Assembly (NCBI GenBank): GCA_035501175.1
Contig: DATJWQ010000012.1
Coordinates: 14,424-78,423 of the forward strand
Direction of reading: 5' to 3'
Length of the DNA: 64,000 nucleotides
Source: Verrucomicrobiia bacterium
Lineage (GTDB): Bacteria; Verrucomicrobiota; Verrucomicrobiia; Palsa-1439
Positions 8,605 to 48,793 of the stretch are shown piece after piece. Within the stretch, counting starts at the first letter, position 1. The number at the start of each line of letters is the position of its first letter. The translations under genes were made by a program, and so were the position numbers. Below the pieces are notes generated by a model, which saw only the letters and a program-made list of their open reading frames with translations, was not told the DNA's origin and did no database searches.

Positions 8605-8735
8605 CGCGAGTTCGATCGTTTCGTCTCCATCCTCGCCTCCCCGGTCTTTCGAAAGTACCCAAACTCCCCTTCACCGGCGAGAGGAAACCGAGATGGGAGA
8701 TTGACAGACGCTCGATACGCCACTACACGATAAGC

Positions 8736-9056: not shown

Positions 9057-9134
9057 TCTCCAGTCAGCGCTTCCGCCCGTCCTTCCCCGTTGCTTTTTGC
9101 GCTCCACGCCGATATGCTGCCCGTGTAAGATACC

Positions 9135-25368: not shown

Positions 25369-26235
25369 TTATGAGCGACGGCGGCGCAATGCCAACAGTC
25401 CGCCAATCATGCCCAAGCCCGCCAGCACAAGCGTCGAAGGCTCAGGAACAACCGCCAATGGCGTGAATTCCATCGGTCCAGTCGTTCCGTTGTAGGAAAC
25501 GAATCCGAAGACGTCGTACGTGTACCCGTTACCGATTGGGGTTCCAGCCAACTGCGTCGACGCAGAATAGGAGGTTGTCCAGTCGAAGCACGTCATGCTG
25601 CCAGTGCTATCAGCGATTGTAAAGGTCTCACTGCTGATGTTCGAGTTGTAGCTTGGTAGAGTCGTCATACCAATGGAAGACGTGATCACCGCATTGGTAA
25701 TTTCCAAGTAGTAGCCAGCGATGCTCAAGCTGCCCGGCTGGTAGTTGGCGCCCATGCCCGAACTGGTGAGGGCGCTGACGCTGAATGCAGGTGCCGCCGG
25801 CACCGTGTTTCCGGTCGATAGAGTGTTGATGAAGTTATTCGAAGCCGCAACTGAGGAGAAGGCAATCTCTGGAAGCGAATGGAACGGACTCCACTGCCCA
25901 TTCAGCTTCAGCATATCTCCCACGCTAAACGAACTGGGAGCGCCGGGCAAGGCCGCCAAGGTCGACGCTGAGACGAAGACATCCATTGAACCCGGGCTTG
26001 TATCCGCAGCGAAGATTGACCAACCAGTAAACGTATGGCCGCCAAATACCCCTGGCTGCGAACCGATGGCTGTCACGATCGGAGAGCTGTCCCACGTTAC
26101 GTTTGCATTGTTCCCGTAAAACTGCTCAATGTCGTTCGCATTATCGGCGTACGCCTTTACGCCACCCAACACTACAGCCGCTGCGATTGCAACGGTGACA
26201 AAACTCTTACTCATACCCGCCAAAGAAATTTCCAT
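25369..26235 (-). CDS. PEP-CTERM sorting-signal protein (secreted; exosortase substrate)
   Basis: C-terminus VPEPSTLVLAGLGMIGGLLALRRRRS (PEP motif, TM helix, Arg cluster) and an N-terminal signal peptide. Confidence 0.8.
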   Translation of the reverse strand: MEISLAGMSKSFVTVAIAAAVVLGGVKAYADNANDIEQFYGNNANVTWDSSPIVTAIGSQPGVFGGHTFTGWSIFAADTSPGSMDVFVSASTLAALPGAPSSFSVGDMLKLNGQWSPFHSLPEIAFSSVAASNNFINTLSTGNTVPAAPAFSVSALTSSGMGANYQPGSLSIAGYYLEITNAVITSSIGMTTLPSYNSNISSETFTIADSTGSMTCFDWTTSYSASTQLAGTPIGNGYTYDVFGFVSYNGTTGPMEFTPLAVVPEPSTLVLAGLGMIGGLLALRRRRS

Positions 26236-26548: not shown

Positions 26549-27289
26549 TCAGCCACGGACCATCAAACAATCAAATTCGATCGCCCGACACCCGTCCATC
26601 GCGACCGGAAACATTCCCGCAACGACAAATCCCGCCCGTTCGTACACCGCCACGCCTTCCGTCCATTGAGGCATTCCATCGTAAATGGGAATTACGGACA
26701 CCTCGGATTGGAGGGCGACCACACGTTCCACTTGCCGCCCCATTCCGCGAAACACTTCCTGATCACAGCCCTGGGTGTCCATCTTGAGAAAGATCCGCCG
26801 CGCATGGCAGTTGGGAACGACTTCCTTCAACACTTGCTCCAGCGGGCGAACCGAAACCATCTCCTCACCCTCCTCGCTCGCCCCCGGTCCCCACCGCCGT
26901 GTGGCAAATTCATTTACGCGCAAGAATGAACTGAGCACGGTCTCCCGAAATACATGAATGGCTCGCGTGGCATTCTGTTCCCCCAAAGCCCACGGATAGC
27001 ACTTCCATTGTCGGTCGCCAGCAACAGACTTGCTCAGACGATCAAACGCCCGGGCGACAGGTTCGAATGAGATGATCTCACCCCTGTAAAACGAGCGCAC
27101 ACCCCGGGCAAATTGTCCCTCATTGGCGCCCACGTCCACCACGAGATCAACGCCGTATTGTTCGAACACGCTTCGAATATGCATCTGGTAGGCAAGATCC
27201 ATGACGGCTCTGACCTTCTTCCGCAATGGTCTCGTACCGGCCACCATCCCGCAGCACCGCTTGATGCCCTCTTTCACGCCGTCCATCAT
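26549..27289 (-). CDS. FkbM-family SAM-dependent methyltransferase
   Basis: DLVVDVGANEGQFARGV motif typical of FkbM/Methyltransf_21. Confidence 0.7.
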   Translation of the reverse strand: MMDGVKEGIKRCCGMVAGTRPLRKKVRAVMDLAYQMHIRSVFEQYGVDLVVDVGANEGQFARGVRSFYRGEIISFEPVARAFDRLSKSVAGDRQWKCYPWALGEQNATRAIHVFRETVLSSFLRVNEFATRRWGPGASEEGEEMVSVRPLEQVLKEVVPNCHARRIFLKMDTQGCDQEVFRGMGRQVERVVALQSEVSVIPIYDGMPQWTEGVAVYERAGFVVAGMFPVAMDGCRAIEFDCLMVRG

Positions 27290-31004: not shown

Positions 31005-31685
31005 GGCGCTGCCCCGCAGTGTGCGGATTTCCCCGCCGGGAGTCAACACCGCGCCTGCGGTGGCAGAATACTGCGGTATTGTAGCCGCGAAACTTTTTCG
31101 CGGGATAACAAGGCTTGGAATAATGCCGCGAATGAGATTCGCCGCAACAAATCACTTCATCCGCCAAGTTCCGCCGCAATGCGCTCCCATCCATGGCGCA
31201 GGACGGCGCGCGCGTCGGCACACATACCGACGCGATCAGGATGCGGTACGCGGATTACATACGCGCGGCGAAACCGACCGTGGCGGATTTTGCAGTGAAG
31301 TTGCATTGAGGGGAAGCGGGGCGGCTGGCGAGAAGAGTGCCTCGGCCCTTCTGAGCGGAACGACGGACAAGGTGGCGGGTAGGTGCGGGGGATACCTGTC
31401 AGTGACAGGCATCGAATGAGGATGCGTTTGTGAGAGGATGATGTCAGGGAGCGGGGCTGATTTGGAAGACTTGGGATTCTGCGGGTTGTGAAGAGCTGTC
31501 TTTGACTGATCCACTACCTAGTACTACCAGGCAGCAGGTGACAGACGGCGAATTTGCAGGTTGTGAGGCGTGGATCCCCTCGGGGTTTACAATTGTACCA
31601 ATGATCAGACCGGCCCCCTACAACGCATTCCCAAAGCGAGATGTCACGAATACAGGTCTGACCCTGAAAACACTGACCCTCAGAC

Positions 31686-33065
31686 CTGTCCAAAATGACT
31701 TTCAAGACGCGGTAGAAAAGGCCTCCGTTTCGGGTGATAACGGTTGATGGAAATGATCGAACCATCAACACCCAGCCACGGAGGCCGTCTCCATGCTACG
31801 CTGCGCCAGTCTGTTCAGCCAAGTCTTATCGTTGATCAACCGCCATCAGTTTGCCGCTGCCGCCAAGACGTTTCGCGCCGAGAAGGGCGCCAAGGGGTTC
31901 CGTTGTTGGGACCAGTTTGTGGCGATGTTGTTTTGTCAACTGGCCCAAGCCAAGAGCCTGCGAGAGATCGTCCAAGGTCTGCTCTGCTGCGAAGGCAAGC
32001 TGCAGCATCTGGGCGTGCGTGCGGCTCCGAAGCGCTCCACTCTCAGTTACGCCAATGCCCATCGTCCGTGGAAGCTGTTCGAGGCGGTGTTCTATCAACT
32101 GCTGGAGCAGTGTCGGCAGGCGGCCCCCACCCGCACCAAGTTTCGGTTCCAGAACAAGCTGCTGTTGCTGGACGCCACGGTCATCGAGTTGTGCGTGACG
32201 ATGTTTGACTGGGCGCGGTTCCGCCGCAGCAAAGGGGCGATCAAGCTGCATCTGCTACTCGATCATGACGGGTATCTGCCGGTGTTTGCCCACCTCAGCG
32301 AGGGCCGCCAGCACGAGATGAGGCTGGCCCGGGGCTTGTGTTTGCCGCGTGGCAGCGTGGTGGCGATGGACCGGGCGTATGTGGATTACCGCTTGTTTCA
32401 GAACTGGACAGAGCGGGGCATTTACTTTGTCACCCGGCTCAAGCGGAAAGCCAACTACTGGGCGGTGCAGAGACGGCGGGTGCGCAAGCAGGCTCTCATT
32501 CGCAAGGACGAACTCATTGAGTTGACGCCGCTGGCAGCCGGTCGGGTCTGTCAGGCCACGTTGCGTCGCATCGAAGTGTGGGTGCCCGACAAACAGGAGA
32601 CGCTCGTGCTGGTGACCAACCAGTTGCAGTGGAGCGCCGCGACCATCGCGGCCATCTACAAGGACCGCTGGCAGATCGAGCTGTTCTTCAAGGCGCTGAA
32701 GCAATACCTCAAGATCAAGAGCTTTGTCGGCACCAGCGTCAACGCCGTGCACATCCAGATTTGGACAGCCTTGATTGCCATGCTGTTGGTCAAGTACCTG
32801 CAACTGCGGGCCAAGATCGCTTGGGCGCTGAGCAATCTGGTGGCCCTGCTGCGCTGGAATCTATTCACGTACCGCGATCTGTGGCGCTGGATCGACGCGC
32901 CGTTTGATACCCCGGCGGGCTCCGAACTGGCCGTCCAAACCTGGCTCATGTTGGACAGCATCCAGCCCGCACAACCGACAACCTCCACCTGAGACGAGCC
33001 TCAGACCAATGAAACCAGGCCGAAAAACAACTGCCCTCTGTCCCAAATCAGATTATCTTGGACAG
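31686..33065 (+). mobile_element. IS4-family insertion sequence (boundaries approximate)
   Basis: Single DDE transposase ORF. Candidate imperfect terminal inverted repeats CTGTCCAAAATGA (31686) and the reverse complement of TCATCTTGGACAG (33065). Confidence 0.5.
31793..32992 (+). CDS. IS4-family DDE transposase
   Basis: N-terminal DUF4372-like region (FRAEKGAKGFRCWDQFVAMLFCQLAQAKSLREI) and a DDE_Tnp_1-like C-terminus (LLLDATVIEL...VAMDRAYVDY...KDRWQIELFFKALKQ). Confidence 0.8.
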   Translation: MLRCASLFSQVLSLINRHQFAAAAKTFRAEKGAKGFRCWDQFVAMLFCQLAQAKSLREIVQGLLCCEGKLQHLGVRAAPKRSTLSYANAHRPWKLFEAVFYQLLEQCRQAAPTRTKFRFQNKLLLLDATVIELCVTMFDWARFRRSKGAIKLHLLLDHDGYLPVFAHLSEGRQHEMRLARGLCLPRGSVVAMDRAYVDYRLFQNWTERGIYFVTRLKRKANYWAVQRRRVRKQALIRKDELIELTPLAAGRVCQATLRRIEVWVPDKQETLVLVTNQLQWSAATIAAIYKDRWQIELFFKALKQYLKIKSFVGTSVNAVHIQIWTALIAMLLVKYLQLRAKIAWALSNLVALLRWNLFTYRDLWRWIDAPFDTPAGSELAVQTWLMLDSIQPAQPTTST

Positions 33066-33167
33066 CAGTGCCGTCCACCAGCATCAGGGTCACATCTAAA
33101 CAAAGGTACATTCGCCATTGCGACACTCACGCCCAAGTCCCCTCCGCTTACCGGATCGCCCCCCGCT

Positions 33168-33338: not shown

Positions 33339-34619
33339 TTGACATCTCCCGGATCCGATCTTGAAGTCGCAAAAAGGCTTGATAGCGGCGTCCGGGCGGA
33401 TAAAATATACTCAGGTGCAGCCGAATGGCCCCGGAGGTCGCGGGCCGCAGGTCATATGGAAAGGGTCGGTCCAATTTCTGCCATGCCCGCCAACCAATCC
33501 GTCGAGACACAGACACCACCAGCAAGCTCCGGCAACGGCCCGGCATCCAGGGACAAACAGCACGTCGAATCACGGTTGATCGAACTCTGGGAAGCGGCAT
33601 TCGGGCGGCATCCAATCCGTGCCGACCAGGATTTCTTTGAGTTGGGTGGAGATTCACTCCTCGCGGCGCGGTTGTTCGCGCAAATCGAGAAGGCCTTCAA
33701 AACGAAGGTGCCGCTGACTGCGCTCGAGAAATCGCCCACGATTGCGCAACTGGCGGAGATTCTGTCCGCTCCCACGGCCCCGTCGTCGACTTCCTGCCTC
33801 GTCGCGGTCCAGCCCAACGGAACGCTTCCTCCTCTTTTCTGTGTTCACGGCCACAGCGGCGAAATCTTTTTCTGTTGGACCTTGTCCCGCTGCATGGGAA
33901 CGGACCAACCCTTGTTCGGGTTGCGCTCCCAGGGTCTCAGCGGGAAAACCGCGCACCACACGGTCGAGGAAATGGCGGCCCATTACCTCCAGGAGATTCG
34001 CGCCGTTCAGCCGCACGGTCCGTATTATTTGGGCGGCTTTTGCTTCGGCGGCATGGTCACCTACGAGATGGCCCGGTCGTTGACCGCGCAGGGCGAGAAC
34101 GTGGCCGTGCTCGCCATGTTCAACACCCCCGCTCCGGGTTCCCTCGAAGGTTGGCCCCTGCGGCAGGGATATCTCGCGAAGAGAATCATGCACGAACTGC
34201 GAAAACTCGCCGCACTCGGAATCCGCGATAAACTGAAGGTTTTCTACACCAAGACGAAAGGACTCGGTCGGCTTCTTCTGGGAAGTGTCCGGGCAATAAT
34301 CTGCAGGATCTCCGCCAAATCCCGTCTCGGCAGCGCCCAAAAATGGACACAGCGCATGTTGAGCGTTCCGGATCTCAATGTCGCAGCGGCCAAGGCGTAC
34401 TCGCCCGGGCCGTATGCCGGACGAAGCATCCTCTTTATCACGGAAGAAGCCCCGTCTCTGTACACCGTCGACCCGAGATCCGGCTGGACTCCGCTGATCC
34501 AGGGCGGAATCGAGGTGCACGACGTCGAAGGCGATAACCTTACCATGTATGACACACCCTACGTTGAGGGTTTGGCCAGGAAAGTGAAGGCCTGTCTCGA
34601 TCGCGCCCGTAGCGCCTAG
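33339..34619 (+). CDS. Standalone peptidyl-carrier-protein (PCP) plus type I thioesterase didomain with a Cys nucleophile
   Basis: PCP FFELGGDSLLAARLFAQIEK (phosphopantetheine-attachment Ser). Alpha/beta-hydrolase TE with LGGFCFGGMVTYEMA, where Cys replaces Ser in the GxSxG motif. Confidence 0.7.
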   Translation: MTSPGSDLEVAKRLDSGVRADKIYSGAAEWPRRSRAAGHMERVGPISAMPANQSVETQTPPASSGNGPASRDKQHVESRLIELWEAAFGRHPIRADQDFFELGGDSLLAARLFAQIEKAFKTKVPLTALEKSPTIAQLAEILSAPTAPSSTSCLVAVQPNGTLPPLFCVHGHSGEIFFCWTLSRCMGTDQPLFGLRSQGLSGKTAHHTVEEMAAHYLQEIRAVQPHGPYYLGGFCFGGMVTYEMARSLTAQGENVAVLAMFNTPAPGSLEGWPLRQGYLAKRIMHELRKLAALGIRDKLKVFYTKTKGLGRLLLGSVRAIICRISAKSRLGSAQKWTQRMLSVPDLNVAAAKAYSPGPYAGRSILFITEEAPSLYTVDPRSGWTPLIQGGIEVHDVEGDNLTMYDTPYVEGLARKVKACLDRARSA

Positions 34620-34641
34620 CCAACGGGAAGAGCCAATCACG

Positions 34642-35559
34642 ATGACACCCCGATTCAGCGTGGTGGTTCCCACGTTCAACCGCGAGAAGCTCGTCGGTTC
34701 CACCATTGATTCCGTGCTCGCCCAGACGTTGACGGATTACGAGTTGATCGTGGTCGACGACGGTTCGACCGACGCCACACCCGAGGTGCTGCGGTCCTAC
34801 GGAACAAGGATCAAGACCGTTCGTCAGGCAAACCAGGGACCAGAAGTCGCCCGCGACCGGGGCATCGCGTTGGCCGCGGGTGAATACGTCGCGCTGCTGG
34901 ATAGCGACGATCTTCTCTGGCCCCGCGCGCTGGAGACATACGAGCGGATCATCCAAGCCTGTGGTTCACCCGCATTGATTCTGGGGGCCACGATACATTT
35001 TCAAGAGCACCCGGTGATCCCCAACGACGACGGCACGAGCGCCATCGAGGTCTTCCTGTATCGCGACTACCTGGCAAAGGACGTGGAGGTTGGCCTGAAT
35101 GGAAGCAATATGGTGATGAAGAAATCGGTCGTGGAGCGGGCCGGCGGTCTGCGCCAGAGCACGCCCACCACATTCCACATGGACCTGCTGGATACCATTC
35201 TGCGCCTCGGCGTTTATGGTCCATGCGTGGTGGTGAGGCAGCCGACAACCGTCTCCTATCGGGTTCACCAGACGAACTCCGTCCGGGATGTCGAGAGAAT
35301 GACGGACGGCATCTATCCGATCGTTCGGGCCGAGTGGCGTGGACAGTATCCGGGCGGAACGTCACGGCGGTTTGCCCGGTTCGCCTGCATCGGGGGCATC
35401 GCCTGGTACTGGCTCAAGCGCGCGCGGGTCGCTCGCCGACCCCGCATCGTGTGCAAATACCTGGTGTACTGCGCGCCGATGCTCCTCGCCGGTGCGCTGA
35501 AGAAAATGTGGGGACGCGCCCGTGGGACCAGCCGTCCCGTCCGCGTGCCTCGTGGGTAG
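34642..35559 (+). CDS. Family 2 glycosyltransferase
   Basis: FSVVVPTFNREKLVGSTIDSVLAQTLTDYELIVVDDGSTD and a DSDD motif. Starts 22 nt after the PCP-TE gene. Confidence 0.8.
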   Translation: MTPRFSVVVPTFNREKLVGSTIDSVLAQTLTDYELIVVDDGSTDATPEVLRSYGTRIKTVRQANQGPEVARDRGIALAAGEYVALLDSDDLLWPRALETYERIIQACGSPALILGATIHFQEHPVIPNDDGTSAIEVFLYRDYLAKDVEVGLNGSNMVMKKSVVERAGGLRQSTPTTFHMDLLDTILRLGVYGPCVVVRQPTTVSYRVHQTNSVRDVERMTDGIYPIVRAEWRGQYPGGTSRRFARFACIGGIAWYWLKRARVARRPRIVCKYLVYCAPMLLAGALKKMWGRARGTSRPVRVPRG

Positions 35560-35831
35560 GGAACGGAACAGAGGGAAACAGGGATCAGGGAACCCCTGAG
35601 CAACTCATCGGGAAAGCCGACTCCCGGCGACCTTGTCGAAGTCCGATCCTGATTCCGGGGTCTCATCTGATTCATGTCATATTTGCCATCCGGATCCTCT
35701 CGCGCCCCGTTCCCCGCCCGCCTCGCATTTTGTCCTATGCGAGAATCATCTCTCGCCCGTATTGCACAGTGCCTGTTGCGTGGTAGGGTTCACTGTTCAA
35801 GGATCGCAGTCCGTTAACTCAAACCGAAGGA

Positions 35832-36140
35832 GTGTGTATCATGTTCGTTGCCGTTCATCACAACATCACCGATCCCGGAAAATGGGAGGAAGCCACCAGC
35901 AGGATCGGCCCGATGGTCATGCAAAACCGTCTGCCGAAAGGCCTCAAAGGAATCTCCTATCTGCCCAGCACCGACGGCCGCCAGGCCAACTGTCTGTGGG
36001 AAGCGGATTCCGTGGAGAACCTGAAACGCTTTCTCGACCCGATGACGTCGCCCGCCGCCAGGAACGAGTACTTCCAGGTCAACACCGAGCACGCGTTCGG
36101 CCTGCCCGAACACGCCCAGGAGGCTGCCGGAATTCATTGA
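35832..36140 (+). CDS. Small hypothetical protein
   Basis: 102-aa ORF with coding-like codon usage and no recognisable motif. Confidence 0.35.
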   Translation: MCIMFVAVHHNITDPGKWEEATSRIGPMVMQNRLPKGLKGISYLPSTDGRQANCLWEADSVENLKRFLDPMTSPAARNEYFQVNTEHAFGLPEHAQEAAGIH

Positions 36141-36270
36141 GCCGGCACAAGGCGAGACATCAGCCTTCCGAAGGCTGGGCATCGGAGGGGCCACTGCGGC
36201 CTCTCCGTTGTTTTTGAATCAGTCCCGATTATTCGCCCAAGCACACGCAACACATGCCGCGGGAACCGCG

Positions 36271-37509
36271 TCACGGACTCAGGACAACTTCGTTGCCATC
36301 TTTGTCTTTGAGCGCGCAGGGCAACGTGCGATACCAACCGACATGCCCATCAATAAAACCAATGTTGCCGCCGATGCATCTGTGGTTCCCAGCGGGTTCC
36401 CACTCGCTGCCTGCCGCCGTTGAGTCGATCCGATCCAGAACGATAGGGGAGTCGGGCTTATCCTGCCATTGCAGATTGGGCACATACGAATAGCTGATGT
36501 TCAATCGGGTCAATTTACGGAAATCTTCTTCCGGCCGCGCATCCGGACGGGAATCGTCGGGACAGAAGAGTATCTTCGCGCTCGGCACAACATTGCTCAG
36601 CAGTTGCATGCTCCCCACGAGCGTCGGTTTCGCCGAGTCCATCGGACACCGCCCCCCGTTGTTGTCCGCATACATCGCAATCGCGATCAGTATCTGCTTT
36701 TCATTGCTCATGCACATCGCCCGCCGCGCCTTTTCTCGCGCCTGGTTCAACGCGGGTAACAGCATGGCCGCAAGGATCCCGATGATGGCGATGAAAATCA
36801 GCCCGCAACCGCCAATCGCCAGCGCCACTACCACTCCCGACATGGCGGGCGCAGCCTCCGCCGCGCTGGGTAGGGTCCCCCGAGGCTGCGTGGTCGCGCT
36901 GGTCACCACGAGACGGTTGACGCTCGATTGCATCATCCCGAGGAAAACCGGAAACATGATGGTATACCCGAGCAGTAGGTTGATGTACGGAATCACCTGG
37001 AAGATGCACGCCGTGGTGGCCAACCCTTTCAGATTGCTCGGGGGTAGACCATAGAGACTTCGCTGTTCGTCGACGCGCACGCACAACCGCCGAAAGGTAA
37101 AGAATATCCAGTAGAGATTGAAGAACGGTATGAAACAGAAGCCGACCGCCCGGCCCGCCGTCGGGTCATCCTGCCGGACCCGTGGAAGCTTGCCGTGCAT
37201 CAGGTTCAGCCAGACAATACCGAAGATACCGCACGTGAGATAGTGCAGAATGATCACCACTGCCACGGGAAATTTCGTCAGCTGATGCGGCCCAGCCGGT
37301 GCAGGTATGGTCGGCGGACCGGATGCCGGCGAAACGGCGGCGAACGCCGCCGCAAGCTCGGGAAATTCCCGCAGCGGTTTCCATCCGGTTGTTCCTTCCG
37401 CTTGCGTCCGCGTGTCGAGGTTCACGCTGCCGCTGGACATCCACTGGCGGATTTGATCCACAGTGGCCGGCCCGTATTCCTTGCCGTCTGCACCAATGAT
37501 CTTGTACAT
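36271..37509 (-). CDS. Membrane protein: N-terminal DUF4339 (GYF-like) domain, polytopic TM core, internal pseudopilin-like helix, and H-X9-DG domain
   Basis: [27 protein letters not shown] (DUF4339), several TM helices, then [24 protein letters not shown] and [14 protein letters not shown] (H-X9-DG family). Confidence 0.6.
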
Positions 37510-37647
37510 GGCTGGAACCGATCCTTTCTACGTTCGTAAGCCAGGCCGTAGACAACAGGCCTCTAACGGGATGACGGGCAGTTCTATACGCCCACATTTC
37601 GTTGGAACGCAAACCAAATCCCTGAAGGTGAACCCCTCACGGGGCGA

Positions 37648-39234
37648 TCACGCCGCCAGCGGATCCACAGAATGCTTCAATTGGCGCGACGGCGGCGTCA
37701 TCCCAGCGTTCGCCAGCAGGGCGTTGATCTCCTTCCGCATCTGCTTGCGATACCAAAGAAAATGTTCGATGTGCGCCGCCGTGCAGATGTATTGACTCAC
37801 CAGCCGCGGGTTGCGCCGGCCAAGACTGATCAGGTGATGCCACCATTTCCACCGCGTCCGACGAATCACTCCCTGCCGCCAGCACATCGTCAGCAGGGCG
37901 CGGATATCCGTCCACCCGTGTTCGATCGGTATCCGCTCGGATGGCTGCCACCGCGGCGGCCCCATCATCAGGAAGTGCCGGTACGTCCGGTCGAGAAACT
38001 TTCGCGGATCGTACAGCTGCCACGTCGTGTCCGCGTACTCGCGCGCAATCTCCTCAATCGGCCGCGTCGGCACGAAGTTCATCAGCGTCTCCTGATTGAG
38101 CCGCGAATCTTCACCCCGCAGCCGTCCTGCCTGCTCGAGCCGATGCCACAGCGGCGTGTGCGGCAGCGCCTGCAGCATTCCAAACAGGATCGTCGGGATG
38201 GAATTGCGCTCCACAAATTCCCGGATCCGTTCGCCCGCGCCCGCCTGCTCGCCATCGAACCCGATGATGAATCCGCCCATCACCCGCATCCCGGCCTGGG
38301 TAATCTTCTGCACCGCCGTATCAAGCGACAGGCGCGTGTTCTGCATTTTGTGCGCCGCGTTGAGGCTCGCCTGGTCGGGCGTCTCGACTCCAAGAAAAAC
38401 GCCGTGGAAATTGCAGTCCGCCATCAGCTCCAGCAGTTCCTCGTCGCTGGCGAGATCCACGGACGCTTCGGTCTCGAGAAAAAACGGATACCGTTGCCGC
38501 TTCATCCACGGCTTCAATTCCTTCAACAGCTCGCGCGTCTTCGCCCGATTGCCGACGAAATTGTCATCGACGATGAAGACGTGCCGATTCCAGCCCAACT
38601 CGACCAGCCGGTCCAGCTCGCGCAGCACTTGCGCCGGCGTTTTCGGGCGCGCCCGCCGGCCGTAAATGGCCGTCACGTCGCAGAATTCGCATTGGAACGG
38701 ACAGCCGCGGGAGAATTGCACCGACAGCGAGTCGTACAAGCTCAAATCCACCAGGTCGAACCGTGGGATCGGCGATTGCGTCAGGTCCGCAAATTGCCCA
38801 CCGGCATGGAACCGGCCCGTGGCGTCACCCCGTTGCAGCGCCGCGACGAACGACGGTATGGTGAGTTCGCCTTCATCCAATACCAGGTAGTCCGGCCCAA
38901 CCGCCGCCACTTCGTCCGGCAACGTCGTCGGATATGGCCCGCCCACCGCGACGCGTTTGCCGCGCCGTTTGGCCTCGCGAATCAGCGCCAGACAATCGGT
39001 CTTCTGCACCGACATCGCGCTGATCAGGACAATATCCGCCCAGTCCCAGTCCGCCTCGTTCGTCGGCTCCGCATTCCGATCGCTCAGGCGAAACTCCCAA
39101 TCCTGGGGCAGCAGCGCGGCCACGGTCAGGAGACTCAACGGCGGCAGCGGCGACTTGCGTTTGATCAACGCCAGCGCCCGTTCGTAGGTCCACATGTTCC
39201 GCGGAAATCGCGGGGACATCAGCAAGGCTCGCAC
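37648..39234 (-). CDS. B12-binding radical SAM protein (class B, DUF4070-type C-terminus)
   Basis: N-terminal cobalamin-binding Rossmann region (LLTVAALLPQDW...VLISAMSVQ), rSAM CxxxCxxC variant FSRGCPFQCEFC, and a long C-terminal extension. Confidence 0.75.
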   Translation of the reverse strand: MRALLMSPRFPRNMWTYERALALIKRKSPLPPLSLLTVAALLPQDWEFRLSDRNAEPTNEADWDWADIVLISAMSVQKTDCLALIREAKRRGKRVAVGGPYPTTLPDEVAAVGPDYLVLDEGELTIPSFVAALQRGDATGRFHAGGQFADLTQSPIPRFDLVDLSLYDSLSVQFSRGCPFQCEFCDVTAIYGRRARPKTPAQVLRELDRLVELGWNRHVFIVDDNFVGNRAKTRELLKELKPWMKRQRYPFFLETEASVDLASDEELLELMADCNFHGVFLGVETPDQASLNAAHKMQNTRLSLDTAVQKITQAGMRVMGGFIIGFDGEQAGAGERIREFVERNSIPTILFGMLQALPHTPLWHRLEQAGRLRGEDSRLNQETLMNFVPTRPIEEIAREYADTTWQLYDPRKFLDRTYRHFLMMGPPRWQPSERIPIEHGWTDIRALLTMCWRQGVIRRTRWKWWHHLISLGRRNPRLVSQYICTAAHIEHFLWYRKQMRKEINALLANAGMTPPSRQLKHSVDPLAA

Positions 39235-39311
39235 GATCGCATTCTCCCGGCGGGAAGAGTAGGGTTCAGATTCCAGCCCGTCAACCGGGATTATCGTTTG
39301 CTTTCTGGAGC

Positions 39312-40712
39312 GTGGTTCCTAATATCGGGTTCATGCCTTCGCGGATTCTGTTGATCAGCAGCAATCGTTGCGACCAGCCGTACCCGGTATTCCCGCTTGG
39401 GTTGGCCCATATTGATACCGCCTTGCGACACGCAGGTCATCGTACCCGCGTGTACGACGCCCAGGCCAGTCAGGATCCCCTCGAGAAAATCCTGGTGGAT
39501 TTCCAGCCCAATGTCGTCGGCGTTTCGCTGCGCAACGTCGACGATGTCCAATCTGTCACCCGCGAAACTTATTTCGGTGACGCGGTCACTCTTTGCCACA
39601 CGATCCGCCGTCTGTGCCGCTGCCCGATCGTTCTCGGCGGCACCGCCTTTTCCATTTTCCCCGAGCAATTGCTCAATCTGACCACTGCCGATTACGGTAT
39701 CCACGGCCCCGGTGAAGCCGCCTTCAATCACCTTGTCGACGCCCTTGCCAACCATACCGACCCGGGCGCCATCCCGGGTCTGGTCTACCGCCGTGGAGAC
39801 CGGGTCGTCATGAATCCGCGCGACCCGTGCGATTCCGCCTCCCTCGGCCCCGCTGAACGTCCCCAGGACCTGGTCGACTTCTATGTCCGACGCAGTTCGA
39901 TGGTGAGCATCTCCACCCAGCGGGGTTGCGCGCTGCCATGCTGCTTTTGCACCTACCCGCTGATCGAAGGACGGGAGAACCGCCAGCGCCCGCCCGAAGA
40001 AGTTGCTGACGAGCTGGCAGCCATTGAGCGGCAGGGCGCAAAGCATGTCTTCATCGCCGATGCCGTATTCAACCTGTCCAACGATCACGTCGTCGGCGTG
40101 TGCGAGGCCATCCTGCGCCGCCGCGTCAAACTGACGTGGACCTGTTTCCTGCGTCCGAAGAATCTGACGGCCGAATTGATGACGCTGATGGCGCGAGCGG
40201 GATTGACGCACATCGAATTCGGCGCCGACAGCTTCTGCGATGACGTGCTCGCCGAATACGGCAAGACGTTCGGCTTCGACGATATCGCTCACTCAACCAA
40301 ATTGGCCCGCGCCGCCCGGGTTCATTGCAGCCATTTCATCATCTGCGGCGGCCCGGGCGAAACGCCGGCAACGTTGCGGACCTCCTTCGAGAATTCACAG
40401 AGGCTGATGGGCGCAATCATTTTCGCGTTTGTCGGGATGCGCATCTATCCCGGTACCCCGTTGTTCGCGCGGGCCGTTCGCGAGGGGATCGTCCGGGCGG
40501 ACGCCGACCTGCTGGATCCCACCTTCTACATATCGCCCGCGCTTACCGAGCCGCGACTGTTGGACCAACTGGCCGGGTTCGCGAGGCTCGCCTCGAGTTG
40601 GATCGTCGGCCCGTTGCCGGCCACGTTCGCCCCGATTGCCGAGCGGCTCCGCCAGCGAGGAGTGGTCGGTCCGTTGTGGGAATACTACACGGCGCTCCGC
40701 CGGACAAACTGA
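39312..40712 (+). CDS. B12-binding radical SAM protein (paralog; divergently transcribed from the first)
   Basis: B12-binding N-terminus (ILLISSNRCDQPYPVFPLGLAHI...VVGVSLR) and an rSAM cluster motif (STQRGCALPCCFCTY). Confidence 0.75.
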   Translation: MVPNIGFMPSRILLISSNRCDQPYPVFPLGLAHIDTALRHAGHRTRVYDAQASQDPLEKILVDFQPNVVGVSLRNVDDVQSVTRETYFGDAVTLCHTIRRLCRCPIVLGGTAFSIFPEQLLNLTTADYGIHGPGEAAFNHLVDALANHTDPGAIPGLVYRRGDRVVMNPRDPCDSASLGPAERPQDLVDFYVRRSSMVSISTQRGCALPCCFCTYPLIEGRENRQRPPEEVADELAAIERQGAKHVFIADAVFNLSNDHVVGVCEAILRRRVKLTWTCFLRPKNLTAELMTLMARAGLTHIEFGADSFCDDVLAEYGKTFGFDDIAHSTKLARAARVHCSHFIICGGPGETPATLRTSFENSQRLMGAIIFAFVGMRIYPGTPLFARAVREGIVRADADLLDPTFYISPALTEPRLLDQLAGFARLASSWIVGPLPATFAPIAERLRQRGVVGPLWEYYTALRRTN

Positions 40713-40713
40713 G

Positions 40714-43014
40714 ATGATGGATGGCTCCAATGCGATCGTGGTGATCACCGGCATCGGCGCCGTAACGCCGCTGGGCGCTGATGTGGCCACCACGTGGCAA
40801 CGGCTCATCGCCGGCGCCGACGCGCGGGCTCCGATCACGCTGTTCGATGTCTCCGGCTGCCGTTGCCGGCACGGTGCCCAGGCGCGGATACCGGAATTGC
40901 CCGAGGTTGACCCGCGCCGGCTGCGGCGGTGGTCGCGGGCAACCCGCTTGGCGGCTCCGGCATTCCGCGAGGCGCTGGCAATGGCGGCGTTGCTCGACGG
41001 AAACGGACGTTCCAAACACAGGCAACTGACGTTGTCGGTCAGCACCACCGGCGGCGCCATGGCGCTGGGCGAGCGCTTCCTGCGGGGACTGCTCTCGCGC
41101 CGTCGCGGACCCGGACGCATCTTTGACGTATCGCACTATCAGGGCCAACACCAACTCCTCGACTTGCAGGATCACTTCGCGTTTCGCGGCCCGGTCACAA
41201 TCATCACGAATACCTGCGCCGGTGGCGCCAACGCCATCGGTCACGCGGCGGACCTGATCCGGGCCGGGCAGGCGGACCTGGTGGTCACAGGGGGGTACGA
41301 ACCGTTGACCGAACTCATCTTCGTCGGCTTCGACTGCCTGCAGGCGATGAGCACCGACCAATGCCGTCCGTTCGACACCACGCGCAGCGGTCTGATGCTC
41401 GGCGAGGCGGCGGCGTTCCTCGTCCTCGAATCCGAGCAGCGCGCCCGCCAACGCGGCGCGAAGATTCTCGGTGTGTTGGCCGGCTACGGGCATGGGACCG
41501 ATCTCTATCATCTCACACAACCGCATCCGCGCGGCGCCGCTCTGGTCGCCGCGATGCGTCAGGCGCTTGCCCGGTCGGGCGTGGCTCTCGCCGACGTCGG
41601 CTATCTCAACGCCCACGGCACGGGCACGCCGCTCAATGACGCCAGCGAATGCGTGGCGTTCAGCGAGGTGTTCGGCGCGAACAGCCATCTGCGCCTGAGT
41701 TCCACGAAAGGAGCCATCGGACACACCCTCGGTGCCGCAGGCGCCATCGAGGCCGTGTTCGCGTTGCAGGCGCTGACCACAGGCGATTTGCCTCCCAATC
41801 TTCATGTGCGGCAACCAGAACCCACCGTCGCTTCCCAACTGGTGACCGGCCACGAACGTGCTCCGTCAATCCGCGCGACGATGAGCGTGAATCTTGGTTT
41901 CGGAGGACCCAACGCCGCGTTGGTGTTTGCACGGTATGTTGACCCGCCTGCGGGAATGAAGTCCGTGTCGCGATCGACGCTTCTGGCTGCTGAACCGAAT
42001 GCCACGATTGGCGTTGGTACCACGAAGTTTCCGCGGCCCCTGGCGATCTGCGGAACAGGCGTGGTCTTGCCGGAAGGCGAACCGAAACGGATGGCTGGTC
42101 TGGCCGGGCACGAATTTCCGGTGAGACGCGTCGACGTACTACGCCCTGAGTTGGCGCGCTGGCAGAAGCTGCCGTCCGTCCGTCGGGCAAGTCCGCTGAC
42201 GTTGTTCATGATTGAGGCGGCGCAGCGCGCACTGGATGCCGCCGGCGGGATCACGGTGGTAAAGCCTTCCACGCTTGGGATCGTTGCCGCCTATCACACC
42301 GGCACGCTGGTCCCGACGGGCCAATTCTTCCAGGGTGTCGTGAAAAATGGCCAGCGCTTCGGCAGCCCGAACGTGTTCCCGGAGACCGTATTCAACGCGC
42401 CCACCAGCCACCTCGCGACCGCCCTGGGGGTTGCCGGGCCAGCGTACTCCGTGCTCTCGGATGACACCGCGTGGGTCGCAGCGATCAATGTGGCCGCGAC
42501 GTGGCTCGCCAACCGCCTGGTCGAGCACGTGCTGGTTGTTGCCGGCGAAGAACTGGATCCCATGGCCGTGGATGCCTACGCAACGGTGCGATGGTTGCGC
42601 CGAAATAACGGATTCGTGCCCGCGGAAGGTGCTGGCGCCTTGGTGTTACGCGCGGCAAATCCCGATGATCCGGTGCAAATCATCGCGTCTGCCGAAGGGT
42701 TTACTCATCGCAATAAGAGACAATCCCGAACCGCTGCGGAAGACTTGTTCTCTCAGTTCCCAGATGTGCGCCATGTGGGGCGGACGGCCGCGGGCACGTT
42801 GTGGGATGCGCTCGAATCCGAAATCCACAAATCCCGCGGGTTCGATGCGCCAGCCGGCGGCGCGAATCCGGGTGCGGCATTTGTGGCGTCGGCTGCCTGG
42901 CATACAGTCTCGGCAGCGGAGGATGTCCGATCAAACGCAAAGGAACTTTTGGTCCCGATTTGGGGCCATAGTCAGCAACATTCCGCACTGCTGCTCGCCG
43001 GATCTTCGGCTTGA
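40714..43014 (+). CDS. Fused beta-ketoacyl synthase (active KS, Cys-His-His) plus KS-like chain-length-factor domain lacking the active-site Cys
   Basis: Domain 1 has TNTCAGGANAIGHAADL (Cys), NAHGTGT, and KGAIGHTLGAAG. Domain 2 (from about LAICGTGVVLPEG) has the KS fold with SVLSDDTAW in place of the Cys motif. The ATG at 40714 follows the rSAM stop by 1 nt. Confidence 0.75.
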   Translation: MMDGSNAIVVITGIGAVTPLGADVATTWQRLIAGADARAPITLFDVSGCRCRHGAQARIPELPEVDPRRLRRWSRATRLAAPAFREALAMAALLDGNGRSKHRQLTLSVSTTGGAMALGERFLRGLLSRRRGPGRIFDVSHYQGQHQLLDLQDHFAFRGPVTIITNTCAGGANAIGHAADLIRAGQADLVVTGGYEPLTELIFVGFDCLQAMSTDQCRPFDTTRSGLMLGEAAAFLVLESEQRARQRGAKILGVLAGYGHGTDLYHLTQPHPRGAALVAAMRQALARSGVALADVGYLNAHGTGTPLNDASECVAFSEVFGANSHLRLSSTKGAIGHTLGAAGAIEAVFALQALTTGDLPPNLHVRQPEPTVASQLVTGHERAPSIRATMSVNLGFGGPNAALVFARYVDPPAGMKSVSRSTLLAAEPNATIGVGTTKFPRPLAICGTGVVLPEGEPKRMAGLAGHEFPVRRVDVLRPELARWQKLPSVRRASPLTLFMIEAAQRALDAAGGITVVKPSTLGIVAAYHTGTLVPTGQFFQGVVKNGQRFGSPNVFPETVFNAPTSHLATALGVAGPAYSVLSDDTAWVAAINVAATWLANRLVEHVLVVAGEELDPMAVDAYATVRWLRRNNGFVPAEGAGALVLRAANPDDPVQIIASAEGFTHRNKRQSRTAAEDLFSQFPDVRHVGRTAAGTLWDALESEIHKSRGFDAPAGGANPGAAFVASAAWHTVSAAEDVRSNAKELLVPIWGHSQQHSALLLAGSSA

Positions 43015-43255: not shown

Positions 43256-44761
43256 GTGCGCGAGTGGTGTCATGCCATTATCGGCCTTGTACTTGTAACA
43301 GCGCCCGTCAGCGCAGCTACCTTCTATGTCGCCCCCACGGGCAACGACGCAAACTCTGGCGCCATTGACGCTCCATTATCCAACATCGCCGTGGCCGTCA
43401 ATCTTGTTGGGGCCGGCGACACCATCTATCTCCGGGGGGGGACGTACTCCTACTCGACCACGATCAACCTCACAAATGCCGGTACGCCCGCCGCCCCCAT
43501 CAAACTCTGGGCCTACCCGAACGAACATCCGTTCATCGATTTTTCCTCGATGGCCGACAACGACGCCAATCGCGGGTTTCGCATCACCACGAACGCGGCA
43601 TCGGGACTTGGCGGTTGTTATTGGTACATCAAGGGGCTGGAAGTGTACCGGGCCGGCGACAACGGGATGAAGATCGAGGGCAGTGGCAACATCATCGAGT
43701 TCTGTTCGTTCCACCATAACCACGATAGCGGCCTGCAGATCGGCCTCGGCGACAGCGACCTGGATCTCCCGTTCCGTGTCTGCTCCAACCAGATTATCAA
43801 CTGCGATTCCTACCTGAATTACGATCCGCGGCATGGCGGTGGAAATGCCGATGGCTTCTGCTGCAAGCTTCATCCGGGACAGGGCAACGTGTTCCGCGGC
43901 TGTCGTTCGTGGGAAAACTCCGATGATGGCTGGGACCTCTACAAAAACCAATACGATGTCACGCTCGATAATTGCTGGACGTGGCACAATGGCGACCCCG
44001 CCAGCTTCGGAACGAATTCAGCCGGCAACGCCGAAGGCTTCAAGCTCGGCGGTGATACGGATTTCTACGGCCCGCGCATGGTGACGCGATGCATCGCCTT
44101 CATGAATCATTTCGGCGGCTCGGGCGCCGGCAAGGCCTTCCACCAAAACGATCATCAGGGCCCGATCACGCTGCTCAACTGCCTGTCGTTCTCCAATAAC
44201 TACGATTACGCCCTCAACAACAGCGGCGGCACGCACACCGTGGAGAATTGCGTCGGCTTCGATCCGTATGGTCCGGACCACAAGCTTGTTTCCAGCAACA
44301 GCACCAGCAGTGACATTTATATCAATAACAGTTGGAACCTGCCGGTCACGCCCAACATCGCGGATTACGTCGTTCTCACCGAAGACGCCGCCAAAGCGCC
44401 GCGCCAGGCCGACGGCAGTTTGCCCAACAACGGCTTTGCCCGGCTGGTCGCCGGCAGCGATTTGATCGACAAAGGCGTGAACGTCGGGTTGCCGTTCAAC
44501 GGCCCGGCACCGGATCTTGGCCCGTTCGAGTTTTCATTCCCGCGTATGGTGCTGATCGATGCCATCTCGATGACCGACACGGGCCTCAACTTGCACGTGA
44601 CCGGACTTACCAGCGACGGACCCATTGTCGTGCTTGCCTCGCCCGATCTTGCGGCGTGGACGCCGATTTTCACCAACCCGCCCGTCACGGGAGGCTGGAC
44701 GTACGTCGACCCCAACGCGGCGAATATGACACAGCAGTTCTATCAGGTAGAGGAACAATAG
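43256..44761 (+). CDS. Secreted right-handed beta-helix (pectate-lyase-fold) polysaccharide lyase-like protein 1 with C-terminal ~70-aa module
   Basis: Signal peptide. FYVAPTGNDANSG...GAGDTIYLRGGTYSY N-terminal signature of beta-helix lyases, repeated NxDG/GFKLGG turns, and a C-terminus ending QQFYQVEEQ. Confidence 0.6.
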   Translation: MREWCHAIIGLVLVTAPVSAATFYVAPTGNDANSGAIDAPLSNIAVAVNLVGAGDTIYLRGGTYSYSTTINLTNAGTPAAPIKLWAYPNEHPFIDFSSMADNDANRGFRITTNAASGLGGCYWYIKGLEVYRAGDNGMKIEGSGNIIEFCSFHHNHDSGLQIGLGDSDLDLPFRVCSNQIINCDSYLNYDPRHGGGNADGFCCKLHPGQGNVFRGCRSWENSDDGWDLYKNQYDVTLDNCWTWHNGDPASFGTNSAGNAEGFKLGGDTDFYGPRMVTRCIAFMNHFGGSGAGKAFHQNDHQGPITLLNCLSFSNNYDYALNNSGGTHTVENCVGFDPYGPDHKLVSSNSTSSDIYINNSWNLPVTPNIADYVVLTEDAAKAPRQADGSLPNNGFARLVAGSDLIDKGVNVGLPFNGPAPDLGPFEFSFPRMVLIDAISMTDTGLNLHVTGLTSDGPIVVLASPDLAAWTPIFTNPPVTGGWTYVDPNAANMTQQFYQVEEQ

Positions 44762-44772
44762 GAATACCATAT

Positions 44773-46227
44773 ATGACCGACTCACTCCGACGAACCGCGA
44801 TGTTCGTCATCGGCTCGCTGGTCGTCGTTTCGGTAAACGTGGGTGCCACCGTCTACTACGTCGCCACCAACGGGAATGACTCGGCCTCGGGTACGTCAAC
44901 CAACACACCTTGGCGGACACCAGAGCGGGGAGTCATCTCAATCCTCGCCGGCGATACACTCTATGTCCGCGGCGGCACCTACATGCTGACCAACCAGGTC
45001 AAAGTGGCCAAGGCCGGCGTGGCGACAAATTACTGCCACATGTGGGCCTATCCCGGAGAGCATCCTGTTTTCAATGCCACCAACCTGCCTTCCGGCGACC
45101 GCGGCATTTATATCGGCAAGGATTTCTGGCACGTCAAGGGAATCGAGGTGGAGTTCGCCCCGGACAACGGCATCATCATCACCAGCGGCTCGAACATCGT
45201 GGAAGGTTGCGTGATCCACGATTGCGGCAACGACGGGATGACCATTGGCAGCACGTCGGCCCTGGGCCATGACAACCTTATCCTGAACTGTGATTCCTAC
45301 CGCAACTATACACCCGGCAGCAGCGGCAACGACGGCGACGGGTTCTCGGCCAAGACCGGTTGCGGCCCCAACAATGTCTTCGAAGGGTGCCGCTCCTATC
45401 TGAATTCCGACGACGGCTGGGATTTCTATGACAATGACGCTAATACCGTCATCCTTTCGAACTGCTGGTCCTTCATGAACGGCTCGAACCAGTGGAACGT
45501 GTCCGGGTTTCAGGGGAACGGGAATGGTTTCAAGTTGGGCGGCTCGGGCACCCACGCCCGTCACACCCTCAAACAGTGCATGGCCTTCGACAACCACTCC
45601 AAGGGCTTCGACTATAATCTCAGTGTCGGCGGCCACACGTTGCTTAACTGCACCAGCTTCCGTAACGTTAACCCCAATTACGAGTTCCCCGTCACGCCGA
45701 GTACCGGCACCGATGTGTTCGAGAATTGCATCTCCTACCTCGGCGTCGTCGACATCATCGCCGGCTCCATCCAGGTATCCAACAGTTGGCAAAATGGCCT
45801 GACCGTGAGCGGCTCGGATTTCGTCAGCCTGGATTCGTCGCTGGCATTTGCGTCGCGCAACCCCGATTACAGTTTGCCCACGAACGGCTTTGCGCGGCTG
45901 GCCGCGGGCAGCGACCTGATCGATGCCGGCATCAATGTCGGTCTGCCCTACAACGGCAGCGCGCCCGACCTGGGGGCGTATGAGTTCGTTCCCGTCGCAA
46001 CACCGCAACAAGCCATCTTTATCGATGCCGTCAGTCAAACGACAACCGGCCTGTTCCTCGAGGTCGTTGGATTGACCAGCCACGGACCGGTGATCGTGTA
46101 CTCATCGCCGGACCTGATGGTTTGGACCCCGATCTTCACCAACCCGCCCGTCACGGGAACCTGGCAATTCACGGACCCGTCGGCAACCAACTCGCAACAG
46201 CAGTTCTACCAGGTACAGGAGCAATAG
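44773..46227 (+). CDS. Secreted beta-helix polysaccharide lyase-like protein 2 (paralog of 1)
   Basis: Start MTDSLRRTAMFVIGSLVVV. YYVATNGNDSASG...GDTLYVRGGTY. C-terminus ending QQFYQVQEQ. The ORF-track extension into gene 1 was rejected. Confidence 0.6.
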   Translation: MTDSLRRTAMFVIGSLVVVSVNVGATVYYVATNGNDSASGTSTNTPWRTPERGVISILAGDTLYVRGGTYMLTNQVKVAKAGVATNYCHMWAYPGEHPVFNATNLPSGDRGIYIGKDFWHVKGIEVEFAPDNGIIITSGSNIVEGCVIHDCGNDGMTIGSTSALGHDNLILNCDSYRNYTPGSSGNDGDGFSAKTGCGPNNVFEGCRSYLNSDDGWDFYDNDANTVILSNCWSFMNGSNQWNVSGFQGNGNGFKLGGSGTHARHTLKQCMAFDNHSKGFDYNLSVGGHTLLNCTSFRNVNPNYEFPVTPSTGTDVFENCISYLGVVDIIAGSIQVSNSWQNGLTVSGSDFVSLDSSLAFASRNPDYSLPTNGFARLAAGSDLIDAGINVGLPYNGSAPDLGAYEFVPVATPQQAIFIDAVSQTTTGLFLEVVGLTSHGPVIVYSSPDLMVWTPIFTNPPVTGTWQFTDPSATNSQQQFYQVQEQ

Positions 46228-46234
46228 GTATTCC

Positions 46235-48745: not shown

Positions 48746-48793
48746 ATTGAGCCAGAACAAATCGTCAATGCGGAATAACCCGTGAGGTAAGTC

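Follow-up and report, generated by a model that had tools for sequence, protein, structure and literature searches.

Aryl polyene (APE) and xanthomonadin-type gene clusters are built from an ApeH ligase, ApeE/F acyl carrier proteins (ACPs), an ApeO/C/R set of ketosynthase (KS) and chain-length factor (CLF), ApeI/P dehydratases, an ApeD acyltransferase, a LolA-like protein and a glycosyltransferase. To our knowledge, cobalamin (B12)-dependent radical S-adenosylmethionine enzymes (B12-rSAMs) are not part of the described APE clusters. A B12-rSAM does belong to the candidate 'ladderane' cluster of anammox bacteria, whose layout has been described as amxACP, amxFabZ, a FabF pair, a phytoene-desaturase-like (PDH-like) oxidoreductase and the B12-rSAM (PMC13459092, PMC10139942, PMC2649909), and the latter is listed in a review as a candidate cyclobutane-forming enzyme (PMC13459092). 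Ladderanes have been reported only from anammox bacteria (PMC9902471). The rSAMs of family TIGR04072 and their KS partners are the usual candidates for the unexplained ladderane chemistry, and this core is also common outside the anammox group; genome miners then call it 'ladderane', with no product known. In Verrucomicrobia, antiSMASH 'ladderane' clusters are well represented with unassigned function, and both 'ladderane' and arylpolyene calls have been published without a product (PMC7298704, PMC8692599, PMC9902471). The DNA analysed here, called the window below, is a stretch of 64,000 nucleotides from a Verrucomicrobiia bacterium (contig DATJWQ010000012.1, positions 14,424 to 78,423). It carries a trio of genes encoding a class-B rSAM with a C-terminal DUF4070 domain, a divergently transcribed TIGR04072 B12-rSAM and a fused KS–CLF protein (Table 1).

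The original prediction had combined seven genes lying within 9.7 kb into a single biosynthetic cluster: the trio, a peptidyl carrier protein–thioesterase (PCP-TE), a family 2 glycosyltransferase (GT2), a small open reading frame (ORF) and a membrane protein with a GYF domain. The ORFs and domains that it listed were recovered by Pfam and NCBIfam at or near the same positions. We consider it probable, nevertheless, that the span is made of three unrelated pieces, namely the trio, the PCP-TE and GT2 pair, and two bystanders (the GYF gene and an IS4 element), and that the trio is the elongation and radical-tailoring core of a verrucomicrobial 'ladderane-type' or APE-like lipid pathway working in trans. 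The trio represents a real, non-housekeeping and already catalogued orphan class, of which the window holds an incomplete, detached and ordinary copy. Since 'ladderane' calls in Verrucomicrobia are already published, the class is a known, uncharacterised one. To call the locus the best candidate for an undescribed system was therefore an overstatement, PGAP having a name for the rSAM family as well.

Gene neighbourhoods were compared in three sets of loci. The first consisted of six contigs (L082–L087) obtained by exact-protein look-ups of KS–CLF homologues, the second of 80 loci (L002–L081) from a genome scan with generic KS motifs, most of which were plain FabF and about 25 informative, and the third of 24 loci (L088–L111) from a metagenome scan with the second, TIGR04072 rSAM. 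The window proteins and the L085 and L086 accessory proteins served as queries against all loci, and about 60 related loci were compared. The sole set among the seven genes to recur there was the DUF4070 rSAM, the TIGR04072 rSAM divergent from it, and KS–CLF directly after the latter; conservation of the neighbourhood thus held for the trio and failed for the other four genes. In the window, L082, L085, L086 and L087, 1–10 nt separated the stop codon of the TIGR04072 rSAM gene from the start of KS–CLF, and the adjacency was also observed in L091, L098, L101, L102, L105 and L108 (10 loci besides the window). Orthologues of the DUF4070 rSAM, 65–79% identical, occupied the same divergent position in nine loci (L082, L085, L087, L095–L098, L101 and L102). 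The intergenic region between the two divergent genes measured 98–113 bp in the window, close to the predicted 110 bp. Two further proposals of the original prediction were borne out by this survey: the rSAM and KS form a recurrent orphan module of lipid type, with translational coupling to a fused KS in 11 loci, and the second rSAM is part of the system, being co-conserved in nine further loci.

In Verrucomicrobia the core consists of the fused KS–CLF and the two rSAMs; depending on the locus, it is enclosed by an APE-like cluster, adjoins one or lies far from it. Detached trios resembling that of the window were found in L082 and L098, and a trio accompanied by an ACP only in L087. The linkage of the rSAM to KS–CLF or to the APE-like cluster was loose in general. 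On one 1.78-Mb contig (L116, ERZ25039540 contig_15775, 819762–841141), approximately 430 kb separated a 73%-identical TIGR04072 rSAM from the APE-like cluster; DUF364 and an ECF/CbiQ-type transporter lay close to this rSAM. Both there and in L117, the rSAM was preceded by a small RRM_1 RNA-binding protein.

The TIGR04072 enzyme matched the profile of its family (rSAM_ladder_B12, 'lipid biosynthesis B12-binding/radical SAM protein') with 416.4 bits for a cut-off of 360 (E 1.1e-124), over profile positions 1–406 of 443, and verrucomicrobial homologues bear the same label in PGAP. An N-terminal Pfam B12-binding domain (6e-15) was followed by a Radical_SAM domain (5e-19) with the motif CALPCCFC; CxxxCxxC was present in 120/120 homologues. 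A literature search on TIGR04072 found nothing. The nearest characterised families were BzaD (220 bits) and TsrM (151 bits; PDB 6wte, 7e-38), cobalamin-dependent C-methyltransferases which act on aromatic carbons, of the B12 lower ligand and at Trp 2-C, respectively. In an alignment to TsrM, the equivalent of Arg69, presumably the Arg beneath the corrin, was conserved. The equivalent of Glu273, which we take to be the Glu that caps the Fe-S cluster and blocks its unique iron, was Val in the window enzyme and Val, Ile or Leu in 119/120 homologues. With the first residue kept and the second replaced, the protein would be a class-B C-methylase using cobalamin as methyl donor with ordinary radical SAM initiation, and canonical radical SAM chemistry would be expected of it as opposed to the polar route of TsrM. 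The enzyme resembles the aromatic C-methylases yet keeps a radical-competent cluster site. Its divergent partner carries the Pfam domains B12-binding, Radical_SAM and DUF4070 (7e-46) with the motif CPFQCEFC, and in NCBIfam it matched generic class-B families only (PhpK, HpnR and the Mcr Gln methylase), all below cut-off.

The KS–CLF gene begins with an ATG located 1 nt past the stop codon of the TIGR04072 rSAM. The TTG at 40429 given in the ORF list was rejected as a start, as this position falls within the rSAM gene. The N half of the protein contains the triad Cys168/His301/His337, which did not vary among 16 homologues. The fold of the C half is that of a degenerate KS (thiolase), with Asp at the position of the Cys (D/E/A/S in the homologues). 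In the AlphaFold model (pLDDT 85, pTM 0.92) a disordered linker was visible at residues 415–434, and both halves superposed on the KS–CLF didomain of PfaC (6riw; TMq 0.78, E 3e-39). The fusion announced by the original prediction is thus confirmed by the triad of the N half, the Cys-less C half and the structural match. Given the complete decarboxylating triad of the N half and the inability of the C half to form an acyl-enzyme, the two would work as an intramolecular KS/CLF pair extending an ACP-bound chain with malonyl units.

Three kinds of described proteins can be set beside this one. PfaC, from a polyunsaturated fatty acid synthase, is the only solved single-chain KS–CLF and has a similar fold, but it shares 18% sequence identity and is part of a multidomain megasynthase, whereas the window protein is a free-standing didomain. 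The KS/CLF of type II polyketide synthases (PKSs) also pairs a triad-bearing KS with a Cys-less partner, as two polypeptides in place of a single 766-aa chain. As to the FabF of core fatty acid synthesis, the KS scored 343.7 bits with the FabF equivalog TIGR03150 and did not reach the cut-off of 493.75, and no fab genes were seen near KS–CLF in Pfam scans and tblastn of the window. Together with the CLF fusion and the rSAM coupling, this excluded a housekeeping fabF, the alternative that the original prediction had raised. The best PDB sequence match of the KS half was 9s5h_B (9e-73).

In L085, L086, L101, L102 and L105, the trio genes were found amid a larger conserved cluster. It comprised a NAD-epimerase, a GT21 glycosyltransferase, a small membrane protein, a 90-aa ACP, an LpxL-type acyltransferase (Lip_A_acyltrans), a LolA-like protein, ApeI/ApeP-like dehydratases (Pfam PF22818/PF22817), an AMP-ligase, YdjC and DUF8321/8322, with sometimes a flavin halogenase-like enzyme and an FkbO/Hyg5-type chorismatase. 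We take this accessory set to match the parts list of APE and xanthomonadin-type clusters; it was present round orthologues in L083–L086, L101, L102 and L105. KS–CLF was followed in the relatives by its own 90-aa type II ACP and not by a PCP, and this conserved position identifies the carrier as an ACP. The same cluster existed without any B12-rSAM in L083, L084 and L058, with a 56–57% identical KS–CLF. Matched verrucomicrobial clusters with rSAMs (L085/L102) and without them (L083/L084) provide a comparison usable to find the role of TIGR04072. In L083 a class I SAM methyltransferase (9213–9941) stands between the GT21/small membrane genes and KS–CLF, where L085 and L086 have the B12-rSAM. 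The rSAM as a positional stand-in for such a methyltransferase was rejected as evidence, the methyltransferase occupying this position only in L083 and lying elsewhere in the locus in L058. A literature search on aryl polyenes and ketosynthases in Verrucomicrobia gave genome-mining surveys only.

The window shares with APE clusters the KS with a CLF-type partner, in fused form, and holds none of their locus-encoded ACP, ApeI/ApeP, aryl-acid AMP-ligase, LPLAT-type acyltransferase and LolA-like protein. When proteins of L085, L086, L024 and L010 were compared by tblastn with the whole 64-kb window, the trio alone matched; the partner queries were the ACP, dehydratase (DH), acyltransferase, LolA-like protein, AMP-ligase, GT21, epimerase, YdjC, FabZ, PDH and FabG. 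The original prediction had also stated that acyltransferase (AT), ketoreductase (KR), DH, enoyl reductase (ER) and adenylation (A) domains were missing. None appeared in the scans made, with different reach for each: A and KR domains and DH genes of the cluster type were not seen in these tblastn searches or in Pfam scans of about 37 larger window ORFs, several ORFs of at least 200 aa being left unscanned, and AT and ER were not seen in the same Pfam scans, no other search having been aimed at them.

The core made of a KS, a KS-like protein and a B12-rSAM was also found in other phyla: in the deltaproteobacterial locus L010, where FabG and a dehydratase accompany it, in L023 from Methylomirabilis, and in L024 from a planctomycete. 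In L024 (2205–8460) the gene order was ACP-FabZ-KS-KS-PDH-like-B12-rSAM, the layout of the anammox candidate cluster. Chains B and C of the heteromeric PDB entries 9s5h/9s5i were near-identical to its two KS (E 1e-199 and 1e-167, respectively); no paper on these entries was found in a literature search on 9S5H. The second KS of the pair is devoid of the active-site Cys motif. The window therefore has in common with the anammox cluster a KS, a catalytically degenerate KS-like partner, fused to it here, and a class-B rSAM. However, the host is a verrucomicrobium instead of an anammox bacterium, the KS half and the TIGR04072 rSAM were 33% and 26% identical, respectively, to those of L024, and the best window match of the L024 rSAM was the DUF4070 enzyme. 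In tblastn searches of the window, the FabZ and the PDH-like oxidoreductase of L024 had no match, and its ACP gave a weak match to the PCP domain only. With the TIGR04072 systems that have an adjacent FabF-like KS (the antiSMASH 'ladderane' class), the window shares the direct coupling of the rSAM to the KS and KS-like pair. It departs from them by the fusion of this pair, by the DUF4070 rSAM as a conserved divergent partner, and by a locus without ACP, FabZ or desaturase.

The PCP-TE and GT2 genes have a different history. The PCP-TE ORF is open from 33339, and homologues support the ATG at 33456, which gives a length of 387 aa equal to that of the 89%-identical homologue P0122. The protein contains a PP-binding domain (1.4e-15) with a GGDSL motif and a Thioesterase domain (1.4e-23) with the nucleophile motif GFCFGG. 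The Cys nucleophile, already recognised in the original prediction, was present in 77/120 homologues, including all the closest ones. GT2 starts 22 nt downstream, and the spacer has the same length in L114, a peat-metagenome contig. Its 88% nucleotide identity to the window begins at window position 33353, spans PCP-TE and extends over the first 54 codons of GT2. The dN/dS of PCP-TE relative to L114 was 0.16, and the homology ended approximately 250 bp from the right end of the insertion sequence (IS). The hypothesis of a gene truncated by the IS was rejected, as homology stops at the PCP and no remnant of a condensation (C) domain exists in any frame; with the purifying selection, this indicates an intact stand-alone gene and not a fresh truncation. 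The GGDSL PCP and the alpha/beta-hydrolase TE with GxCxGG are shared with termination modules of nonribosomal peptide synthetases (NRPSs) and PKSs that have a Cys TE. Unlike an NRPS termination module (C-A-PCP-TE), the window gene has no preceding C, A or KS module in Pfam scans. P0124 retains only the last helix of a C domain. From these comparisons PCP-TE appears to be a leftover of the termination module of a hybrid PKS/NRPS. Together with GT2 it forms a separate conserved unit under purifying selection.

The loci L112 and L113 (70–77% identity) keep only PCP-TE with an Sfp-type phosphopantetheinyl transferase (PPTase), a GT87, another GT2 and YdjC. This other GT2 shares 29% identity over about 120 aa with that of the window and was rejected as its orthologue. 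In L112, a 561-aa gene (8001–9686) joins the N-terminal half of a C domain (HHLVYDDWS) directly to a C-terminal PCP half, which lacks the Ser motif, and a Cys-TE. This NRPS relic, which has undergone an internal deletion, lies beside the PPTase, GT87 and GT2. In L115 (63–11161), a verrucomicrobial hybrid line was observed, with 3HCDH, an ACP, an acyl-CoA dehydrogenase, a FAAL-like AMP-ligase and a 1973-aa type I PKS, whose gene end is overlapped by a (C-tail)-PCP-TE(Cys), 55% identical to that of the window, with an adjacent Sfp-type PPTase. L115 is probably the ancestral context of the window PCP-TE. No rSAM or KS–CLF was found near the PCP-TE relatives in the L112, L113 and L115 contexts. 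Likewise, in the 80 genome, 24 metagenome and six looked-up loci, neither PCP-TE nor this GT2 nor the GYF protein had a homologue near the core. The comparison thus does not support the placing of these three genes in the same system as the trio or, given the type II ACP that follows KS–CLF in the relatives, the assembly of a product on a free-standing PCP. The link of the trio to PCP-TE and to a glycosyltransferase in the window appears coincidental.

The approximately 700 bp between GT2 and the GYF gene (35560–36270) contain only the small ORF and a hairpin. The small ORF (35832–36140, 99–102 aa) had no Pfam or NCBIfam match and no support from conservation. The hairpin has a 10-bp stem with eight GC pairs, followed by a T run, and lies between the GT2 unit and the convergent GYF gene; it is likely a terminator separating the units. 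In a sigma-70 promoter and terminator scan, the counts were at chance level and this hairpin was the sole noteworthy site. The membrane protein matches Pfam GYF_2 and DUF4234, with a sub-threshold match to DUF1559 and a prepilin-like/DUF1559-like C-terminus. No homologue of it was found beside the DUF4070 rSAM or the core in the related loci, and it is a bystander, typical cargo of the PVC (Planctomycetes–Verrucomicrobia–Chlamydiae) superphylum. The IS4 element, with candidate terminal inverted repeats of 14 nt (31654–31667 and 33084–33097, 86% complementary), is a bystander as well, outside any biosynthetic unit.

We propose the following scheme for the trio. The active KS half (Cys-His-His) would catalyse a decarboxylative Claisen condensation with malonyl-ACP, and the Cys-less CLF-like half, paired with it intramolecularly, would shape the acyl pocket. 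KS–CLF would in this way extend an ACP-bound unsaturated or aryl-primed chain, the ACP being supplied in trans. The two cobalamin-dependent rSAMs would then modify the chain or its head group, and the most probable chemistry is C-methylation, either of the chain while it grows or once it is finished, or of its aryl head. Because the trio is detached from the accessory genes in the window, its ACP and other partners would have to be encoded at other sites of the genome and work with it in trans. Such action is plausible because the rSAM of L116 lies about 430 kb away from the APE-like cluster within one contig.

Several observations weigh against this scheme. The ACP, DH, KR and acyltransferase partners were not found in the 64-kb window, so that action in trans is an assumption of the model, and the related clusters likewise showed no ketoreductase. 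In L090, L092, L093 and L097, whose rSAMs are 71–80% identical to that of the window, and in L116, the rSAM had no KS–CLF within 10 kb; the substrate of the rSAM therefore need not be the product of KS–CLF. We infer the methylation from family resemblance, and a class I methyltransferase at the position of the rSAM was seen in one locus only (L083). In pairwise comparisons with PDB sequences, the KS half gave E-values of 1e-69 to 1e-73 with FabF versus 1e-47 with 7f28_B and 2e-40 with 7f27_A, both of which we take to be solved aryl-polyene ketosynthases. The label 'APE-like' reflects gene context and not KS phylogeny. Finally, the class has no member with a known product.

It is possible that the rSAMs act on another substrate (lipid, cofactor or peptide) and that their adjacency to KS–CLF reflects shared regulation only. 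Close rSAM orthologues do stand alone or with the DUF4070 partner only (L090, L092, L093, L095, L097 and L116), and the RRM_1 neighbour in L116 and L117 and the ECF/CbiQ transporter near the L116 rSAM fit such a role. We hold this to be unlikely, as coupling to KS–CLF within 1–10 nt recurs in 11 loci, the adjacency of KS, KS-like protein and B12-rSAM spans four phyla, and the NCBIfam curators defined TIGR04072 by its lipid-cluster context. The trio might otherwise be an inactive remnant of an APE-like cluster broken by a rearrangement involving IS activity. The whole accessory set of L085, L086, L102 and L105 is missing from the window, the trio (37648–43014) has the IS4 element at a distance of 4.5 kb on its upstream side, and the flanks are unrelated (beta-helix pectate-lyase-like proteins and the GYF protein). 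But the three ORFs are full-length, with Cys-His-His and both CxxxCxxC motifs intact, and the detached arrangement exists in independent contexts (L082 and L098, and L087 with the ACP only). An rSAM unlinked to the APE-like cluster of its own genome further suggests that dispersal is normal for this pathway, and decay of the window copy seems quite unlikely to us.

A single pathway of all seven genes, in which KS–CLF would build a chain on the PCP before tailoring by the rSAMs, glycosylation by GT2 and release by the Cys-TE, would account for their presence inside 9.7 kb. The PCP is the sole carrier protein found in the window, purifying selection acts on the intact PCP-TE and GT2 genes, and the APE-like relatives carry a glycosyltransferase and YdjC, the latter being also found near the PCP-TE relative of L113. 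This pathway is nonetheless very unlikely: PCP-TE, this GT2 and the GYF gene never accompanied the trio in the related loci, and the relatives of PCP-TE sit with PPTase/GT87 or behind a type I PKS. Moreover, the conserved partner of KS–CLF is a type II ACP whereas the window carrier is an NRPS-type PCP (GGDSL), the units are split by the hairpin terminator and a convergent gene, and the pair is flanked by the IS and a break in synteny. We are similarly doubtful of a portable 'elongate-and-radically-modify' cassette that would plug into different carriers, and which here, with the PCP-Cys-TE and GT2, would have opened a new glycolipid route close to that of the original prediction: an acyl chain, methylated or cyclised by the rSAMs, would be assembled on the PCP or passed to it, then freed by the Cys-TE and glycosylated. 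In a milder form of such a novel reading, the TIGR04072 enzymes would act on polyene or aryl lipids as radical C-methylases, taking the place of class I methyltransferases where oxygen is absent. That the module makes cyclised lipids, ladderane-like (cyclobutane) or other, on the model put forward for the anammox cluster, is the least credible reading and can hardly be maintained. It would draw on the KS/KS-like/B12-rSAM core common to L024 and PDB 9s5h and on the naming of the B12-rSAM as a candidate cyclobutane former (PMC13459092). Against it stand the 26% identity of the TIGR04072 rSAM to the L024 rSAM, to which the DUF4070 enzyme is nearer, and the failure of tblastn to find amxACP, amxFabZ and the PDH-like desaturase in the window. 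In addition, ladderanes are known only from anammox bacteria and the 'ladderane' calls made elsewhere are of unassigned function (PMC9902471, PMC7298704), and the ladderane pathway is itself unproven.

Table 1. Features of the 9.7-kb span and of the adjoining insertion sequence, in window coordinates.
Feature	Position	Strand	Basis and remarks
IS4-family insertion sequence	31654..33097	+	Transposase ORF 31793-32992; Pfam DUF4372 and DDE_Tnp_1
PCP-thioesterase, Cys nucleophile, 387 aa	33456..34619	+	Pfam, motifs
GT2 glycosyltransferase	34642..35559	+	Pfam Glycos_transf_2, 1.6e-29
Candidate terminator hairpin	36183..36207	+	G+C-rich stem then T run
GYF_2/DUF4234 membrane protein	36271..37509	-	Pfam
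Class-B (B12-binding) radical SAM enzyme with C-terminal DUF4070	37648..39219 (or 39234)	-	Pfam
TIGR04072 B12-rSAM	39333..40712	+	NCBIfam, 416.4 bits
Fused KS-CLF, 766 aa	40714..43014	+	Pfam, NCBIfam, AlphaFold model

The window as a whole is a chromosomal segment with 59–60% G+C. The region is bordered by housekeeping genes, on the upstream side those for RNase HII, YraN and a ComM-like protein, on the downstream side those for Fpg and the suf operon. The rSAM/KS–CLF core (38001–42000) was slightly richer in G+C (0.62–0.65, versus 0.57–0.61 elsewhere in the window). Directly downstream of KS–CLF, five tandem genes on the same strand (43256–53868) encode Pel9A-like/pectate-lyase right-handed beta-helix proteins of 501, 484, 836, 823 and approximately 850 aa, several of them with Ig-like domains; the array resembles a paralogous set of polysaccharide lyases or adhesins. 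On the other side of the span, three large fusions of PMT_2 (GT-C mannosyltransferase-like) and TPR domains were observed at 20907–22727, 22846–25026 and 27451–29895, and between them a PEP-CTERM protein (25369–26235) and an FkbM-type methyltransferase (26549–27289).

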